Below are positions 13,634 through 20,226 of a DNA stretch of 32,000 bases, one piece after another. Under the pieces are notes generated by a model, which did no database searches, was not told where the DNA came from, and saw nothing but the letters and a program-made list of their open reading frames with translations. The stretch comes from Delftia acidovorans NBRC 14950 (GTDB taxonomy: Bacteria > Pseudomonadota > Gammaproteobacteria > Burkholderiales > Burkholderiaceae_C). Within the stretch, counting starts at the first letter, position 1. Each line of letters starts with the position of its first letter. The translations under genes and the position numbers were made by a program. Where the stretch lies: assembly GCF_001598795.1 (NCBI RefSeq), contig NZ_BCZP01000012.1, forward strand, positions 150,001-182,000. The letters are read 5' to 3'.

Positions 13634-14899
13634 TCAGTTCCGGTGCCAGGGCGCCGGCACCATGTCGAAAAGCGGCGTGGGGTCGCGCCGGTAGGGCGCA
13701 GGGCTGATGGGCGCCATGGGCTGCATGGTCATGGGGTCGATGCGTGCCAGCTGCTGCATCCAGCCAATGTCCACACCGCCGCCCTGTGCGGGGCGCGAAT
13801 AGATCAACTCCAGCATGCGCCGCGATGCCACATGGCCGTGGGACGCCGCCTGCTGGTACAGGCGCAGGGCCTCGGTGTAGTTGGCCGGCACGCCTTCGCC
13901 ACGGTGATAGCGCTGGGCCTGCTCCCACTGCTGCTGGGCCGTGACGGGCTGGCGCACCTGGATGTCCTGCTCGCTGGGCGAGCCCCGCAACTCCGGCGTG
14001 CGCTGCAGCCGTTGCGGCCCCTGCGCCGCAGGCGGGGCAGACGTGCCCTGGGCCGACACGAGCTGGCCCGCGGGCCGCATGCGGTCGCCCAGCATCTGTG
14101 CATTGGTCGCCGCGCTGGATGAGCGTGGCGCCGCCGCGCGGAACTGGCGCAGGGCGGCCTCGGGCTCGTCCTGCGCGAGCAGGGCCAGGCCCCATTCCAG
14201 CTGGGCGCCGGGGCTGCCCGAACGCGCCGCGCGCTGCAGCAGTTCCTGGTCGGGCGTGCCTGCCACGGTCAAGGCCTCGCCCACGGGCTCGGCCGTGGAC
14301 AGCGGCGCCAGGCGCCGTGCCAGCAGCCATTCCAGGTATTGCGCACGGGCCGGGTCGGTCTTGGCCAGCTGGGCGATCCAGGGCCTTGCGGCCGGTGGAT
14401 CGGGGGGCTGGCCGCAGCCGTCCATGGCGCACCAGGCCAGTCCCGCGCTGGCCAGCGGATGGCCGGCGCGCTGGGCACGCTCGAACCAGTTCCTGGCCTG
14501 TGGCCCGTCCTGGGCCATGGCAATGCCATGCAGTGCCAGCAGGCCCATGACCCATTGCGCCTCGCGCTGCGTGGCTGGGCTCACGCCCTTGCCTTCGGCG
14601 CGGCTGCGCAGTTGGGACAGGGCCCGTTGCTGGGCGGTATCCGAGGTCGAATTGATGTTGCTGGTGCCCGGCTGGGAGCCGTACACGCTGGCCGTCGCCA
14701 CCCGGATGGGCATGACCGGCGTGAAGCGGGCTGCCGCCTGCACATGCGGCAGCACGGCGGGCGCCAGACCGGGCAGCACCACCAGCAGCCCGGGCAGCAC
14801 AAGCCTGGCGGTCAGGCGCAGCCCGCGGCGCCGCCGCGGCGAGGTTTCATGAGCGCTGGAGGGCATGGCAGGTGCCTCTGGTTGGCTTGTGGTCCGCAC
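13634..14899 (-). CDS. Secreted Sel1-like (TPR-type) repeat protein
   Basis: Signal-like N-terminus (RRRRGLRLTARLVLPGLLVVLPGLAPAVLPHVQAAA). Several Sel1-type units are present, e.g. QWEQAQRYHRGEGVPANYTEALRLYQQAASHGHVASRRMLELIY. The start is GTG 14899, 6 nt after the upstream stop, or ATG 14866 with an AGAGG 8 nt upstream. Confidence 0.75.
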   Translation of the reverse strand: MRTTSQPEAPAMPSSAHETSPRRRRGLRLTARLVLPGLLVVLPGLAPAVLPHVQAAARFTPVMPIRVATASVYGSQPGTSNINSTSDTAQQRALSQLRSRAEGKGVSPATQREAQWVMGLLALHGIAMAQDGPQARNWFERAQRAGHPLASAGLAWCAMDGCGQPPDPPAARPWIAQLAKTDPARAQYLEWLLARRLAPLSTAEPVGEALTVAGTPDQELLQRAARSGSPGAQLEWGLALLAQDEPEAALRQFRAAAPRSSSAATNAQMLGDRMRPAGQLVSAQGTSAPPAAQGPQRLQRTPELRGSPSEQDIQVRQPVTAQQQWEQAQRYHRGEGVPANYTEALRLYQQAASHGHVASRRMLELIYSRPAQGGGVDIGWMQQLARIDPMTMQPMAPISPAPYRRDPTPLFDMVPAPWHRN

Positions 14900-14905
14900 C
14901 GTGCA

Positions 14906-16543
14906 TCAGCGCTTGGCCTGGGCCGGCACCACCTGCCAGAAGCGGGCCGAGCCGGTGTACCCATCTGCGCCCAGCGAGCTGGCCATGTACTGGTTGACAT
15001 CCTCCAGGGAGCGCATGCCCGGGATGGCGATGAAGGCCTTGCCCTGCAGCAGGGTGGGCAGCTTGTCGGTCATGTTCTGCTCGGTAGCGAAGCAGGCCAC
15101 GCCTTCCTTGCCGGGAGGGCCGGCGTTGATCACATAGCCGGGGTTGGGGCTCATCCAGTCGGGCAGGCGCACGGACTGGGCGGCGGTGATCCAGCCCGAG
15201 CGGTTCACGTCGTTGGGCACCAGCCGGGTGACCTCGCCATCGGCGCCCGCCATGAAGCACGACAGGTAGGAGGCACGCGACACGGTGGTGGACAGGAAGA
15301 GCTGCTCACCCGTCTCGAAGGAGGTGCGGGTGGGCGTGATGTTCTCCACCCACAGGTCCAGCTTGCGGTCGGGCGCGGGGGCGCCGTAGCGGTAGTCGCC
15401 CGTGCCCACGGCCACGTTCTCGGAGGCGGTGGTGACCGGCGCTGCGCTCTTGGTGTTCCAGCCAATGCGCGTGATGTGCCCATCGGCGCCCACGGCCACG
15501 AAGTCGCGCAGTGCGCGTTCGTAGGTGTTGAAGTCCACCACGCCGCTGACCACCATGCCGCTGTCGGCCTGGAAGCGCCCTATGGCCTCGCGCCACTGCG
15601 GGTTGCCTGCGGTGAAGGCCGGGGCGTCCGGCGGCAGATAGCCCTTGCTGATCAGCGACTGGCGCACCAGTTCCTGGTGGATGCCGGCTTCGCCTTCTTC
15701 GTACCAGTCGCGCAGCTGGCGCTGGAAGTCGGGGTGGGTCTGGTCCAGCGTCAGGCACTGCCAGTAGGGCAGGCGCGACCATTTGCCCAGCAGCTCGATC
15801 ATGCCCAGCTCGACCAGGGTGCGCACGGCCGGGCCCGAGCCCTGGGCATAGTCGCGGCCCACGCTGAACTGCACGCCGTAGGTGCCGATGCGGCCGGACA
15901 GGTCCAGCCCCTGGCTGCCGTTGCCGATGACGACCTCGTTGGCCGAATCCAGGCCCGGGATGATGGTGCGCGTGCGGAAGTCGCCCAGGTGCAGCTCCAT
16001 GCCCAGCACGGCGCCGCTGCGGTTGGCGCTGTAGCCGGTTTCCAGGCGCGAGGCGCTGGTGCCTATGTCCACGTTGTTGCGCAGCACGTTCTGGTCCATG
16101 AAGGACACGGCGCCCGACACATACAGGGCAGGGCGCTGCAGCTGGATCTGGTTGTTGTTGAGCAAGATGGTGGTGAGGTTCTGCACCGTATCCTGGCGGG
16201 CGATGTCCACCTCATAGTCCACGTAGCGGAAGGCACTGCTGACGCGCGACATCTGGGACAGGGCGGTGACCACCATCTCCTTGGCGGCCACGGCCACGCG
16301 GCCCGAGTAGTCGGGCAGCTGCTTGCTGGTGATCAGCACCGTGGGCATGTGGCTGTTGCGGAACATCCTGTCCATGCACATCAGCGAGTCGGAAAAGCTC
16401 GATATCGAGCGCACCGGCCGCACCACGGGGCGGTCGGCCGCATAGACCTTGTCAAGGTACTTGGCGTCCTTGCGCGCATCCAGCGGCGCGCAGCCCGACA
16501 GCAGCACGATGGAGGCCGAGACGGCGCAGGCAATGGCCCGCAT
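14906..16543 (-). CDS. Outer-membrane lipoprotein with three parts: CsgG/HfaB-like secretion-channel domain, peptidoglycan-binding (PG_binding_1-like) domain and DUF4384-like domain
   Basis: ATG 16543 gives MRAIACAVSASIVLLSGC (lipobox, Ala at +2). Residues ~45-265 align by eye with E. coli CsgG blocks (AVAAKEMVVTALSQ vs SATAMLVTALKD; ALYVSGAVSFMDQNV vs NIMVEGSIIGYESNV; GPAVRTLVELGMIELL vs EPVMLCLMSAIETGVIFLI). Residues ~286-345 fit the PG-binding pattern (LVRQSLISKGYL...WREAIGRFQADSGMVVSGVVDFNTYERAL). Residues ~395-490 resemble DUF4384 (LWVENITPTRTSFETGEQLFLSTTVSRASYLSCFMAGADGEVTRLVPND). Confidence 0.8.
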   Translation of the reverse strand: MRAIACAVSASIVLLSGCAPLDARKDAKYLDKVYAADRPVVRPVRSISSFSDSLMCMDRMFRNSHMPTVLITSKQLPDYSGRVAVAAKEMVVTALSQMSRVSSAFRYVDYEVDIARQDTVQNLTTILLNNNQIQLQRPALYVSGAVSFMDQNVLRNNVDIGTSASRLETGYSANRSGAVLGMELHLGDFRTRTIIPGLDSANEVVIGNGSQGLDLSGRIGTYGVQFSVGRDYAQGSGPAVRTLVELGMIELLGKWSRLPYWQCLTLDQTHPDFQRQLRDWYEEGEAGIHQELVRQSLISKGYLPPDAPAFTAGNPQWREAIGRFQADSGMVVSGVVDFNTYERALRDFVAVGADGHITRIGWNTKSAAPVTTASENVAVGTGDYRYGAPAPDRKLDLWVENITPTRTSFETGEQLFLSTTVSRASYLSCFMAGADGEVTRLVPNDVNRSGWITAAQSVRLPDWMSPNPGYVINAGPPGKEGVACFATEQNMTDKLPTLLQGKAFIAIPGMRSLEDVNQYMASSLGADGYTGSARFWQVVPAQAKR

Positions 16544-16750
16544 GCAACCCTGTCTGCCGGACCATCGCTGGCGGAAAGTCCCACGGTCGTCCGCATGGCC
16601 GCCGAGTGCCGGCTGCAGCGCGGCATCGGGGCGGGGAAGTCCTGGCGATGGAAGGCGGTTGCGCATGATGGACCTCTGCTGGAAAACGGCGAGCCAGGGC
16701 ACAGGCGCGCACGGGCGTCGGCGCCGGAAATGGGGGGATCGATAAATGGT

Positions 16751-16774
16751 GGGCGGCCCGAAGGCTGGCCGCCC
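16751..16774 (-). terminator. GC-rich hairpin 9 nt after the 140-aa gene stop (possible terminator or attenuator splitting the locus into two units)
   Basis: GGGCGGCC (16751-16758) pairs with GGCCGCCC (16767-16774) around an 8-nt loop. On the minus strand it is followed by ACCATTTATCGAT, a weak U-tract. It sits in a 240-nt gap before the lipoprotein gene. Confidence 0.45.
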
Positions 16775-16783
16775 TGTGTCGCG

Positions 16784-17206
16784 CTAGCGGCAGACGTTGA
16801 CCAGGTCGCCCTTGAGGACCACGATCTGGTCCTTGGTCTGGGGCCCATAGCGGTTGAATGCGCTGGCGTTGGTGTTGCTGGCCAGGTCCTGGGTGCAGGT
16901 GCGCTGCATGCCCGTGCTGCTCGTCGTGGTCGTGGTCACCACGTTCGCTTCGGTGGAGATACCGGGCGCATTGGTCATGGACATGGCTTCGTAGCGCGCG
17001 ATCTTGGCCTTGACATTGATGGGGATGTCGGTGACGGTGTCCAGCCCCGACGATGTCGGCTGCTTGGCCGTGGGCAGCCTGAGGTAGTCGACGGGCTTGT
17101 TCAGCACCACCGGGTCTTCGCCGGGGGCCGCTGCATGAAGGGGGGTCGCTCCGAGGGCGAGCCAGGCCAATAGGGTAGCCGAACAGAGATGGGCGGCGGT
17201 GTGCAT
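16784..17206 (-). CDS. Secreted 140-aa protein carrying one C-terminal copy of the fibre-subunit repeat; candidate nucleator or adaptor
   Basis: AGGAG lies 7 nt upstream of ATG 17206. Signal peptide MHTAAHLCSATLLAWLALGATPLHA|AAPG. There is a Thr/Ser-rich linker. The C-terminal QDLASNTNASAFNRYGPQTKDQIVVLKGDLVNVCR aligns with NNLASNYGEVDVKSTSIQVVAAKNSGIIN of the neighbouring repeat protein. No known family was recognised. Confidence 0.7.
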   Translation of the reverse strand: MHTAAHLCSATLLAWLALGATPLHAAAPGEDPVVLNKPVDYLRLPTAKQPTSSGLDTVTDIPINVKAKIARYEAMSMTNAPGISTEANVVTTTTTSSTGMQRTCTQDLASNTNASAFNRYGPQTKDQIVVLKGDLVNVCR

Positions 17207-17255
17207 GGTGGGCTCTCCTGGTGCGGTGAGCTGGGTCTTCGCCGGGAAGGTGCCG

Positions 17256-17278
17256 CCGGGTGGCCTGGGGCCGCCCGG
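17256..17278 (-). other. GC-rich intercistronic hairpin between the repeat-protein gene and the 140-aa gene
   Basis: CCGGGTGGCC TGG GGCCGCCCGG on the plus strand. On the minus-strand mRNA there is one C/A mismatch and no U-tract. Confidence 0.35.
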
Positions 17279-17304
17279 CAGTTTCCTTCGTCCGGCAGCC
17301 AGGC

Positions 17305-17790
17305 TCAGTGGTTGTTGTAGCAGGTCACGCAGCCGTTGTTGCTGGAGATGTTCTGCACTGCCGTGGAACCGTTGCCGGCGTAGTTGATGATGCCGGAGTT
17401 CTTGGCAGCCACCACCTGGATCGAAGTGCTCTTCACGTCCACTTCGCCATAGTTGGAGGCCAGGTTGTTGACGGCCACTGCGCTATAGCCATCGGCCTTG
17501 TTCAGGATGCCGCTGCCGGTGGCTGCGACGACTTGCAGCGAGCTGCCACTGCGATCGATGGTCACGTTGCCTGCATTGCTGGCCAGGTTCTGGGAGGCCT
17601 TGCCACCACCCGTTGCCACGTTCAGCACGCCGCTCCTGTTCAGCAGGGTGACCTGAACGCTGGGGCCATTGATTTCGATCTGGGAGCTGCTGCTGCCGCC
17701 GCCGCCACCGCCGCCACCGCCACCACCCATGGGGCCTGCCATGGCAGCTGTTGCGATCAAGCTCAGGGAAAGAATTGCAAGCGATTTCAT
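17305..17790 (-). CDS. Secreted 161-aa poly-Gly / triple-repeat protein; candidate curlin-like beta-solenoid fibre subunit
   Basis: AGGAG lies 4 nt upstream of ATG 17790. Signal peptide MKSLAILSLSLIATAAMA. This is followed by GPM-G11-SSSS and then three imperfect ~37-40-aa repeats (QV.(L/A)...SG(V/I)(L/I)N.A......A..N(L/I)(A/S)SN.G.V). The C-terminus is GCVTCYNNH. The listed ORF 17305..17940 was trimmed to the signal-peptide start. Confidence 0.8.
   Translation of the reverse strand: MKSLAILSLSLIATAAMAGPMGGGGGGGGGGGSSSSQIEINGPSVQVTLLNRSGVLNVATGGGKASQNLASNAGNVTIDRSGSSLQVVAATGSGILNKADGYSAVAVNNLASNYGEVDVKSTSIQVVAAKNSGIINYAGNGSTAVQNISSNNGCVTCYNNH
17695..17727 (-). repeat. (GGN)11 trinucleotide tract encoding the Gly11 run of the repeat protein
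   Basis: The plus strand reads gcc gcc gcc gcc acc gcc gcc acc gcc acc acc, flanked by four Ser codons. Confidence 0.9.
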
Positions 17791-18328: not shown

Positions 18329-18357
18329 CAATCTTTCACAAACTTCGTCAAAGATTG
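18329..18357. promoter_or_regulatory. Inverted repeat CAATCTTT-N13-AAAGATTG (candidate operator)
   Basis: Perfect 8-bp arms at 18329-18336 and 18350-18357, in the AT-rich patch ~90 nt upstream of the response regulator start. Confidence 0.4.
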
Positions 18358-18362
18358 TGGAT

Positions 18363-18413
18363 ATCGGTTGCGATTTCTCTTAATGTGGAAAGGCAAGTCT
18401 GTGATCGGTTGCG
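18363..18413. promoter_or_regulatory. Direct repeat ATCGGTTGCG x2, spaced 41 bp start to start (candidate regulator binding sites)
   Basis: Identical 10-mers at 18363-18372 and 18404-18413, upstream of the response regulator RBS. Confidence 0.35.
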
Positions 18414-18447
18414 TCATACACATGGCGTGACATTTGAGGAGAGCAGC

Positions 18448-19227
18448 ATGAATCCATCCGACGTTCCCGCCGATGCCCGTCCCCTGATCGCCGAGTCCCC
18501 TCGCGCCCAGGGCATGCTGGGCACAGGGCTGAGTTCTGCCATGTGGCCTGACTACCTGGCGGGCCAGCCCGACAAGCCCGTGCGGGTGCTGCTGGTGGAC
18601 GACGATGCCCATATCCGCATGGTCATTGCGCAGGAAATCATGAACGACCCGCGCACCCTGGTCGTGGCCCAGGCCGGCAGCGTGCGCGACGGGCGCAAGG
18701 CCATCCGCCAGCATGAATTCGACGTGATGCTGGTGGACCTGAACCTGGGTGACGGCGAGGGCTTCGAGCTGCTGGACATGATGAAGACCGTGCGGCCCAC
18801 GGCCGAGGCCGTCATCATCTCCGTGATGGAAAACGACGAACAGGTGCTGCGCGCCTTCGAGCTGGGCGCCACGGGCTACCTCGTCAAGAACTCCTGGTTC
18901 GGCAACTATCCGCAGGCCGTGCTGCAGGTGGCCAATGGCGGCGCATCCGTCACCCCCAGCCTGGCGCGCAGGTTGCTGCAGCGCTTCGACAAGACCCAGG
19001 GCGCCGAGCCCAAGCGCCGCACGCCCGACGAGGCAGACCGCCTGTCCACCCGCGAGCGCGAGGTGCTGCGCATGGTCGCCAGCGGCTATACCAGCGCCGA
19101 GATCGGCTCGCGCCTGATGATCAGCGCCATGACGGTCAACACGCACATCAAGAACATCTACCGCAAGCTGCAGGTGCGCACACGCGCCCAGGCGGTACGC
19201 TTTGCATCGCTGCGCGGCCTGTTCTGA
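18448..19227 (+). CDS. Two-component response regulator, NarL/FixJ (LuxR-type HTH) family
   Basis: GAGGA lies 7 nt upstream of ATG 18448. The receiver has canonical residues (LLVDDD, MLVDLNLGDG, IISV, GYLVK). The C-terminal LuxR HTH is LSTREREVLRMVASGYTSAEIGSRLMISAMTVNTHIKNIYRKLQV. About 45 aa precede the receiver. Confidence 0.9.
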   Translation: MNPSDVPADARPLIAESPRAQGMLGTGLSSAMWPDYLAGQPDKPVRVLLVDDDAHIRMVIAQEIMNDPRTLVVAQAGSVRDGRKAIRQHEFDVMLVDLNLGDGEGFELLDMMKTVRPTAEAVIISVMENDEQVLRAFELGATGYLVKNSWFGNYPQAVLQVANGGASVTPSLARRLLQRFDKTQGAEPKRRTPDEADRLSTREREVLRMVASGYTSAEIGSRLMISAMTVNTHIKNIYRKLQVRTRAQAVRFASLRGLF

Positions 19228-19302
19228 TCCTGGGGCGGCGTCCTGCCCGCAGCGGCCTGCCGCCGCCCGGGCCATGGCGGCCGCGCCTGGCACGGCTTGG
19301 CC

Positions 19303-20226
19303 ATGAAAGATCCCCTTCGCACGCTGGCCATCTGCCTGGCCCTGGGCCTGCTGCAGATGCTGGGCCTGTGCGCCTGGCTCTGGCAGGCGGGCGCCCAGGC
19401 CCCGCCGTGGCTGAGCCTGGCCAGCCTGGCGCTGCTGGTATCCACGGCGCTGCTGTGCGCCATGGGCGCCCGGCGACTGCACAGGCTGCTGCTGTGGCGG
19501 CGCCGGCGCAGTCCCCGGCCCTCGCGCGAAGTGCAGGCCGAGCGCCGGCGCATTGCCGCCGACCTGCATGACGGCGTGGGCGGGCTGCTGGTGCATGCCA
19601 TGGCCTTGCTGGACCCGCGCGAGACCCGCCAGCGCCAGGCGCAGGAATTGCTGGAGCAGGGCTTGCTGGACCTGCGGCTCATGGTGGATGCCATGGACGC
19701 CATGGAAGACGCCTTGCCCGTGCGGCTGGCGCGCCTGCGCCACCGGCTGCAGCCCGTGCTGGACCGGCGCGGCATGCGCATCTGCTGGAGCGTGGCCGAT
19801 CCGCATGCCGCCGCCGGGCTGCGCGGGGTGCCGGACCTGCCAGTCTTGCAAGACCTGCCAGACCTGCCGCGTGGCCAGCCGTCCCAGCAGTTGCTGGCCA
19901 TCGCCCAGGAGGCCGTGAGCAATGCGCTGCAGCATGCGCGCGCCACCACGCTGTGGCTGGTGCTGGAGCCGGTGGATCGTGCAGATGCTGCAAGCCCTGG
20001 CCGCGATGCCCGGCGTGCATTGCACTGGGAACTGCGCGTGGAAGATGACGGCTGCGGCCTGCCGTCCGACCCTGGCCCTGGCCCTGGCCCTGCGCAGGGT
20101 GCCATCCCGCCTGGCCTGCAGGGCATGGGCCTGGCAGGCATGCATCGCCGCGCCCATGCCATCGGGGCTGTGCTGGACATCCTGCCGCGGGCCGGTGGGG
20201 GTACCGTGGTGCGTGTGCGCTGGTGA
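19303..20226 (+). CDS. Sensor histidine kinase, HisKA_3/NarX-DesK type, two TM helices and almost no periplasmic loop
   Basis: H-box ERRRIAADLHDGVGG, N-box EAVSNALQHA, G1 VEDDGCGL and G2 GMGLAGMHRRA. Two N-terminal hydrophobic helices are separated by ~9 residues. The start is ATG 19303; the track starts at TTG 19297. Confidence 0.85.
   Translation: MKDPLRTLAICLALGLLQMLGLCAWLWQAGAQAPPWLSLASLALLVSTALLCAMGARRLHRLLLWRRRRSPRPSREVQAERRRIAADLHDGVGGLLVHAMALLDPRETRQRQAQELLEQGLLDLRLMVDAMDAMEDALPVRLARLRHRLQPVLDRRGMRICWSVADPHAAAGLRGVPDLPVLQDLPDLPRGQPSQQLLAIAQEAVSNALQHARATTLWLVLEPVDRADAASPGRDARRALHWELRVEDDGCGLPSDPGPGPGPAQGAIPPGLQGMGLAGMHRRAHAIGAVLDILPRAGGGTVVRVRW
20071..20092 (+). repeat. (CCTGGC) hexanucleotide tandem repeat (~3.5 units) encoding PGPGPGP between the kinase G1 and G2 boxes
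   Basis: Read directly: cctggccctggccctggccctg, inside the histidine kinase CDS. Confidence 0.8.

Follow-up and report, generated by a model that had tools for sequence, protein, structure and literature searches.

The cassette and its conservation

The window analysed here is a stretch of 32 000 nucleotides from Delftia acidovorans NBRC 14950 (contig NZ_BCZP01000012.1, positions 150 001 to 182 000), and its subject is a gene at 16784..17206 that encodes a secreted protein of 140 residues, referred to below as the partner. Coordinates are those of the window and lie on the reverse strand unless stated otherwise. The partner gene is preceded by that of a 161-residue repeat protein, the putative fibre subunit (17305..17790), and followed by that of a 545-residue lipoprotein (14906..16543; longest open reading frame, ORF, to 16702), termed the channel for reasons given below. 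A gene for a Sel1-repeat protein (13634..14899; Pfam Sel1 E = 3.4e-11) is the last of the cassette. Divergent from these genes, on the forward strand, are a LuxR/GerE-type response regulator (18355..19227; Pfam Response_reg and GerE) and the histidine kinase that pairs with it (19297..20226; HisKA_3/HATPase_c). The partner quite possibly serves as an accessory protein dedicated to an uncharacterised cassette for the secretion and assembly of fibres, of HfaB/CsgG type (type VIII-like), in which it may act as a channel-proximal adaptor or nucleator. A role in starting or anchoring the fibre is plausible but tentative, as the tail of the protein only weakly resembles one repeat of the subunit.

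That the ORF at 16784..17206 is a real gene for a secreted protein, as an earlier note on this locus had claimed, is well founded: it begins with ATG, has an AGGAG sequence 9 nt upstream of the start, encodes a signal-like peptide and belongs to a conserved family. To place it in context, 80 Comamonadaceae loci were collected by a genome scan seeded with the lipoprotein, which is much more widespread and has more than 840 homologues. In 77 of the 80 loci the gene next upstream of the lipoprotein gene is that of the partner, the three misses being contig ends; the earlier note had held that absence of the gene from orthologous loci would speak against its proposal, and the gene is present. The partner is preceded by the repeat-subunit gene in 75 loci (the misses again fall at contig ends), and the channel gene is directly followed by the Sel1 gene in 76, as it also is in distant cassettes. 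The position of the divergent LuxR regulator is kept in 69 loci, and in addition in L085, L093 and L094, and the histidine kinase is kept in 61 of the 80.

The order subunit–partner–channel–Sel1, accompanied by the divergent LuxR regulator and its kinase, is a property of Comamonadaceae (Delftia, Acidovorax, Comamonas, Polaromonas and Hydrogenophaga among the genera) and of distant lineages, two classes of which, here called B and C, show the same gene order. A metagenome scan for further class C cassettes returned one new locus only (L097). Mirror-tree style distance correlations gave Spearman coefficients of 0.46–0.56 for all pairs and did not discriminate between partners. The retention of the divergent regulator and kinase with the cassette mirrors the divergent csgD-type regulation of curli operons. 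One Acidovorax metagenome-assembled genome (21I_056.bin.15) carries two separate complete cassettes, L009 and L020, which shows that the system can occur in duplicate. Current annotation gives all three core proteins only as hypothetical or DUF4384 proteins, and a literature search found no description of this cassette.

The 545-residue lipoprotein has an LLSGC lipobox, the cysteine of which (Cys18) is invariant in 52 homologues, as befits an outer-membrane lipoprotein. Over the N-terminal ~250 residues, 49 of the 52 members show a match to NCBIfam HfaB (model positions 3–257 of 264; best E = 6.8e-6), at a score far below the equivalog cut-off (19 bits versus 300). The Pfam domains PG_binding_1 and DUF4384 follow. 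HfaB is the Caulobacter homologue of CsgG and is required for the surface display of HfaA and HfaD (PMC6707917; 10.1101/2022.07.20.500906). The remote homology to HfaB, together with its status as a lipoprotein, is the basis on which we infer that the protein is a channel.

Partner and subunit families

The first 25 residues of the partner (codons 17132..17206) form a hydrophobic, signal-like peptide, with LHA|AAPGEDP at the junction to the mature protein, and the C-terminus reads ...TCTQDLASNTNASAFNRYGPQTKDQIVVLKGDLVNVCR. An AxA-type site directly precedes APGEDP in all partner homologues; this and the hydrophobic N-terminus are the grounds for the predicted cleavage after LHA. Word-indexed searching gave 35 homologues, and an exhaustive profile search of 1.8e9 representatives extended the family to ~106 clusters at 50% identity, essentially all of ~140 residues. 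The length of the mature protein is fixed at 108–122 residues.

An alignment of 76 sequences resolves three conserved blocks separated by variable linkers. The first is the mature N-terminus, APGEDP(V)xL (conservation 0.80; A27, P28, G29, E30 and D31 invariant), which in the window takes the form AAPGEDPVVL (residues 26–35, 17102..17131). The second is a basic helix, PxWxRAKxARYEAKA (residues 62–78, 16973..17023; conservation 0.75), the RAK core of which is present in all partner classes; residues 63–76 are helical in a low-confidence AlphaFold2 (AF2) model. The third is a Cys-bracketed, repeat-like C-terminal module of the form TC104xQxxxSN...Q127(I/V)VVL(K/R)GDLVNxC139 (residues 103–140, 16787..16900), in which the segments TCxQ(E/D)(V/L)(G/A)SN and Q(I/V)VVL(R/K)GDLVN(I/V)C are conserved at 0.76 and 0.85, respectively, and C104, Q106, Q127, V129, V130, G133, D134, N137 and C139 are invariant. 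Mature partners carry exactly two cysteines in 72 of 72 cases, and these bracket the module. The TTTTTSS segment, which had been read as a Thr/Ser-rich linker, is instead the form that a semi-conserved DVVTTA stretch takes in Delftia.

The distant partners vary these themes. Those of class B read APG[VT][DN]P... at the mature N-terminus and C[VI]MDIGS... and QPVLIRGxVLNxC in the C-terminal module, and those of class C lack APGEDP and have CxTN[IV]G... and NIVVVKGDVISxCK. We considered whether the RGD/KGD tripeptide of the module might be a cell-adhesion motif and rejected this, as distant partners carry IRGN or IRGT instead. Three large repeat proteins, P0272 (335 residues), P0238 (3148 residues) and P0270 (2126 residues), match the N-terminal region of the partner several times; each unit of P0272 repeats 'EAGPGEDSVVLSQSTADG', a match to the partner that may reflect either chance or a common binding motif.

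The 161-residue subunit consists of a signal peptide, a Gly/Ser tract, three copies of a ~39-residue repeat with the consensus QNLASNxGNVxIxGxSxQVxxxxxSGxxNxA, and a CxxC end. Both the subunit and the partner thus have Cys-containing tails, as the earlier note had described. In composition the subunit is 64% N/Q/S/T/G/A, and family members range from 141 to 320 residues, which corresponds to roughly three to seven repeats. The subunit matched no Pfam family at E ≤ 1 and no NCBIfam family; when 15 subunits were compared with the NCBIfam models relevant to holdfast and curli at E ≤ 10 none matched, the presence of HfaA and HfaD models in that library not being confirmed. Residues 22–36 of the subunit (17683..17727) are encoded by a (GGY)n-(AGC)n tract that specifies Gly11-Ser4. 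The number of glycines in this tract differs between Delftia strains (five in L001, 16 in L002 and 11 here), which suggests that the length of the N-terminal linker varies through a slippage-prone tract.

Class C cassettes have two subunit-like genes before the partner (L086, 4085–4904; L087; L088; L091, 1949–2665; L092, 1155–2272; L097, 557–1432). One of the products, s2, is of the standard QN(L/V)(A/S)SN type, and the other, s1, is divergent, with a repeat of ~35 residues (GxNxQTVVVNGSVxNSASGxGxxxxINIGSV) that the hidden Markov model (HMM) of the standard repeat recognises. Neither s1 nor s2 has the C-terminal Cys pair. By analogy with curli, s1 and s2 are a possible minor/major subunit pair like CsgB and CsgA.

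Resemblance of the partner tail to the subunit repeat

The earlier note had proposed that the last residues of the partner are a single copy of the subunit repeat. At the level of the two proteins this could not be upheld, since BLASTP gave E = 4.1, an insignificant alignment of the kind that the note itself had named as contrary to its proposal; the 35-residue pairwise alignment of the note is thus no evidence on its own. At the profile level the idea fares better. Alignment of the partner family with the subunit family by hhalign gave P = 0.016 in the same register as in the earlier note, and a profile of 162 repeat units aligned with the 76-sequence partner profile with a score of 17.5 (P = 0.008). 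Column shuffling gave a null distribution with a mean of 9.5 and a standard deviation of 2.0, and two of 300 shuffles reached the observed score. These alignments span only 16–30 C-terminal columns, and their register is constant, with QxVVLRGDLVN aligned to SxQ...SxVxN. The same placement recurs in the weak matches of the repeat-unit HMM, which always put QxVVLRGDLV at unit positions 17–30; the best partner reached E = 0.033 among 6788 ORFs.

The s1 repeat of class C was the most informative and gave stronger matches. For the Comamonadaceae partners the hhalign score was 22.5–22.6 (P = 0.002), with VGSnT...QIVVLRGDLVN aligned to igs...NxQxVxVxGsvxN, and none of 150 shuffles reached it. For class B the score rose to about 26–28.4 (P = 1.4e-4 to 5e-4) over 51 columns, or ~1.5 repeats, again with none of 150 shuffles reaching it. 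Five real control families (Sel1, regulator, kinase, Tex and channel), drawn from these loci, scored only 6.7–13.4, compared with 22.6–28.4 for the Comamonadaceae and class B partners. When an s1 HMM was built from foreign lineages only, partners made up 34 of the top 40 non-subunit matches among the 6788 ORFs.

A number of results weigh against the resemblance and against the role that we build on it. Pairwise alignment was insignificant in two other lineages as well (E = 0.48–5.4 and 0.94), and the partner-profile search of 1.8e9 representatives recovered only ~140-residue partners, with zero cross-hits to subunits. The hhalign probabilities are low (3–52%, and 3–14% for this clade), and individual HMM E values run from 0.005 to above 1. 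The poorest match to s1 is that of the partners in class C, with which it coexists (score 15.4, P = 0.04; one of 150 shuffles reaches it). Covariation of the partner and subunit motifs across lineages was looked for with a negative outcome, because subunits keep QNLASN while distant partners change to MDIGS or TN[IV]G; these partners also lose both of the matched Gln residues, with QNLASN still present in their subunits. The LASN that had been taken as a shared repeat signature proves to be limited to the partners of Delftia and Comamonas, with VGSN, IGST or MDIGS elsewhere. Column shuffling does not preserve the periodicity of β-strands, and the significance of the scores may be overstated for that reason. 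On balance, the C-terminal ~40–55 residues of the partner are probably, though not certainly, a diverged pseudo-repeat of the subunit type. That this one repeat acts as a nucleator is a moderately supported hypothesis.

Proposed role of the partner and its alternatives

The analysis shows sequence conservation, synteny, three conserved blocks, a universal Cys pair and a weak repeat likeness; the sequence of events that follows is a proposal at every step. The partner would leave the cytoplasm through Sec, and signal-peptide cleavage would uncover APGEDP, the invariant N-terminus. An intramolecular disulfide between C104 and C139 would then close a strand–loop–strand module of ~36 residues that mimics the junction of two repeats; the disulfide is argued to be intramolecular because the Cys pair of the subunit is absent from class C whereas that of the partner is universal. 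The non-repeat part, through the N-terminal motif, the basic helix or both, would dock at the lipoprotein channel, and the stapled module would offer the first rung for stacking of the subunit, or of the minor paralogue s1 where it is present. In this way the partner might both seed the fibre and hold it to the cell surface; in curli terms it would work like CsgF, possibly taking over part of the templating by CsgB.

In the arrangement of its gene and protein the partner recalls CsgF in several respects. Both are small Sec-exported precursors (138 residues for CsgF and 140 for the partner), both are encoded immediately upstream of the gene for a lipoprotein channel (csgF then csgG in Escherichia coli), both have a conserved extreme mature N-terminus, and the partner, like CsgF, is predicted to be flexible or disordered when alone. 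These are likenesses of context and do not prove membership of the CsgF family. CsgF is bipartite, its N-terminal part binding the channel and its C-terminal part the fibre nucleator, within the chain CsgG–CsgF(N)–CsgF(C)–CsgB–CsgA (PMC6957492). The partner appears to be bipartite in logic too, and class C cassettes, with s1 and a retained partner, would parallel the chain CsgG–CsgF–CsgB–CsgA. The partner differs from CsgF in its Cys-bracketed C-terminal module resembling a subunit repeat, and the channel here differs from that of the CsgF system in carrying extra peptidoglycan-binding and DUF4384 domains. To our knowledge, CsgF has no such Cys-bracketed, repeat-like C-terminal module.

Like CsgB, the partner shares an operon with the major subunit and, as proposed here, would template subunit folding through a repeat-like surface and hold fibres on the cell. 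CsgB, however, has five repeats and is paralogous to CsgA over its full length (PMC6957492), whereas the partner shares at most 1–1.5 weakly similar repeats with the subunit and is unrelated to it over two-thirds of its length. In addition, class C has a true second subunit paralogue, s1, alongside the partner. The earlier note had cast the protein as accessory to a repeat subunit and as the neighbour of a channel of the CsgG type, and this we retain. Its CsgB-like nucleator fits less well: a strict role of that kind, for a paralogous nucleator, is disfavoured because the partner is not a paralogue of the subunit, has a fixed size and coexists with the second paralogue of class C. The better fit is an adaptor of the CsgF kind whose C-terminus would act as a template, as distant cassettes hold a separate minor-subunit paralogue and yet keep the partner. 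The best reading is of a protein closer to CsgF than to CsgB in logic, with no detectable homology to either.

A periplasmic function would account for some of the same features. The partner might be an escort, a secretion-specificity factor or an anti-aggregation chaperone of the CsgE/CsgC kind that is not itself exported, its repeat-like strand binding the unfolded subunit and either delivering it to the channel or capping the latter on its periplasmic side. The partner is small and Sec-exported, its gene stands between those of the subunit and the channel, the protein is predicted to be mostly disordered on its own, and the strand could bind the subunit through β-augmentation. CsgC-type proteins also feature a Cys pair and, the Sel1 protein aside, the cassette holds no other candidate chaperone. 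That Sel1/tetratricopeptide-like protein is, however, at least as good a candidate for the escort role, no similarity of the partner to any chaperone family was found, and the invariant mature N-terminus and channel-adjacent gene resemble CsgF more than CsgE or CsgC. We regard this explanation as unlikely.

The Caulobacter holdfast-anchor system HfaA/HfaB/HfaD(/HfaE) offers a different model. The N-terminal domain of the lipoprotein is most similar to HfaB, and in both systems small secreted proteins are encoded beside the lipoprotein gene; the small Hfa proteins of Caulobacter form multimers that resist SDS (sodium dodecyl sulfate), and their surface display requires HfaB (PMC6707917; 10.1101/2022.07.20.500906). 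The cassette described here differs in belonging to a betaproteobacterial lineage, in having no holdfast polysaccharide genes, in the extra C-terminal domains of its channel and in the presence of Sel1 and two-component genes. On the pattern of the mutually dependent HfaA/HfaD pair that HfaB exports, the partner could be a minor component of the fibre (a tip, cap, terminator or co-polymer), with its pseudo-repeat at one fibre end and no docking at the channel. HfaB is the sole family-level match of the channel, and the small amyloid-like HfaA, encoded beside hfaB, depends on HfaD and HfaB (PMC6707917; 10.1101/2022.07.20.500906). A C-terminal module that resembles 1–1.5 repeats would also suit a cap, as a single rung with a blocked edge. 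Against this, the size of the partner is fixed, and its non-repeat two-thirds equal the repeat-like tail in conservation, which points to a further binding partner. None of the NCBIfam models relevant to holdfast or curli matched any of 26 partners at E ≤ 10, the HfaA/HfaD content of that library not being confirmed. The prospect of a fibre component seems to us about as slight as that of a periplasmic escort.

The 'CsgG plus two lipoproteins' cluster of Acinetobacter and E. coli belongs to the CsgG/HfaB family, is not curli and is largely uninvestigated (10.1101/2021.05.19.444899). It has two partner lipoproteins and no repeat subunit and is linked to PNAG (poly-N-acetylglucosamine), whereas the partners in the cassette here are non-lipoprotein secreted proteins, one of them a QNLASN-repeat subunit. 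We considered whether the Acinetobacter 'curli-like' cluster could be the same system and rejected it as a different one.

Several searches for homology and structure weigh against the channel-proximal adaptor. The partner has no relative in Pfam, in NCBIfam or in a sequence search of the Protein Data Bank (PDB), and AF2 gave no confident fold for it (pLDDT, the predicted local distance difference test score, of 48.6). Comparison with E. coli CsgF by hhalign gave P = 0.42, with no Pfam match, and that with CsgB gave P = 0.069 over ten irrelevant columns. For the lipoprotein, the pore architecture follows only from the sub-threshold HfaB match: the Pfam CsgG model did not match at E ≤ 1, and AF2 modelled the N-terminal domain at a pLDDT below 50. 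The hhalign comparison of the lipoprotein with E. coli CsgG covered 20 columns only (P = 0.022), and across E. coli CsgG, CsgF, CsgB and CsgA no convincing homology emerged. The Pfam curlin-repeat model matched neither partner nor subunit at E ≤ 1. PDB sequence searches with the three family profiles returned nothing relevant, that with the lipoprotein profile giving no match, and a Foldseek search of the PDB with the lipoprotein model found only immunoglobulin-like β-sandwich matches to the DUF4384 part.

Least probable among the alternatives is that chance, or compositional convergence on a β-strand motif (hydrophobic run-G-x-V-x-N), produced the likeness and that the partner has an unrelated role, such as modulating the PG_binding_1/DUF4384 domains, the Sel1 protein or the two-component sensor; the insignificant pairwise comparisons, the low hhalign probabilities for this clade, the lack of cross-hits, the unconserved Gln and LASN residues of distant partners and the permissive shuffling null all favour it, but the register is identical in three independent partner classes against two repeat types, the scores of five real families, each longer than the partner, are much lower and the foreign s1 HMM ranks the partner family first among non-subunit ORFs.

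A bolder form of the CsgF-like adaptor reading, which we consider doubtful, is that the cassette builds an undescribed, curli-independent family of amyloid-like fibres from 39-residue QNLASN repeats, in which one protein merges docking of the CsgF type with templating of the CsgB type by means of a disulfide-stapled pseudo-repeat nucleus. The family as read here is widespread in Comamonadaceae and occurs in other Proteobacteria. If the proposed model holds, the cassette would stand beside curli and the holdfast anchor as a third branch, diverged independently, of the CsgG/HfaB-dependent assembly of surface fibres, in Comamonadaceae of environmental and clinical relevance. A nucleator made of one disulfide-locked repeat would then be a compact natural model for the seeding and tethering of functional amyloid, and a handle for biofilm control or for engineered living materials. 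The partner is of interest mainly as an entry point to the cassette system.

Further features of the cassettes

Some class C cassettes have an additional gene after the Sel1 gene, encoding a pentapeptide-repeat protein of ~150–165 residues (L092, 5512–5964; L097, 4606–5103). The N-terminus of the L097 protein contains one subunit-like strand (DNEQSVSVQGTIINKAVG...SEQNI), which makes it a further candidate for a one-repeat partner. On a contig of 633 bp, the 176-residue protein P0044 joins a subunit-like N-terminal half to a phenylalanine-hydroxylase-like C-terminus (PF00351), a fusion that is probably an assembly or frameshift artefact.

Two potential RNA structures flank the partner gene in the window. 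Directly after the partner stop codon, an 8 bp GC stem followed by ACCAUUUAU (16751..16774) is weakly terminator-like; an AUUUAU sequence follows the stem, the predicted stability of which is not significant (−19.8 kcal/mol, z = −1.8). The distance from the partner stop codon to the lipobox-proximal start of the lipoprotein is ~240 nt (16544–16783), compared with ~50 nt in other genera. Between the subunit and partner genes lies a very stable GC hairpin (17255..17279) that has no U-tract on the coding strand, with a predicted folding energy of −41.4 kcal/mol (z = −4.5). This hairpin could act as an attenuator or as a stabiliser of the mRNA, and might in this way set the ratio of subunit to partner expression.

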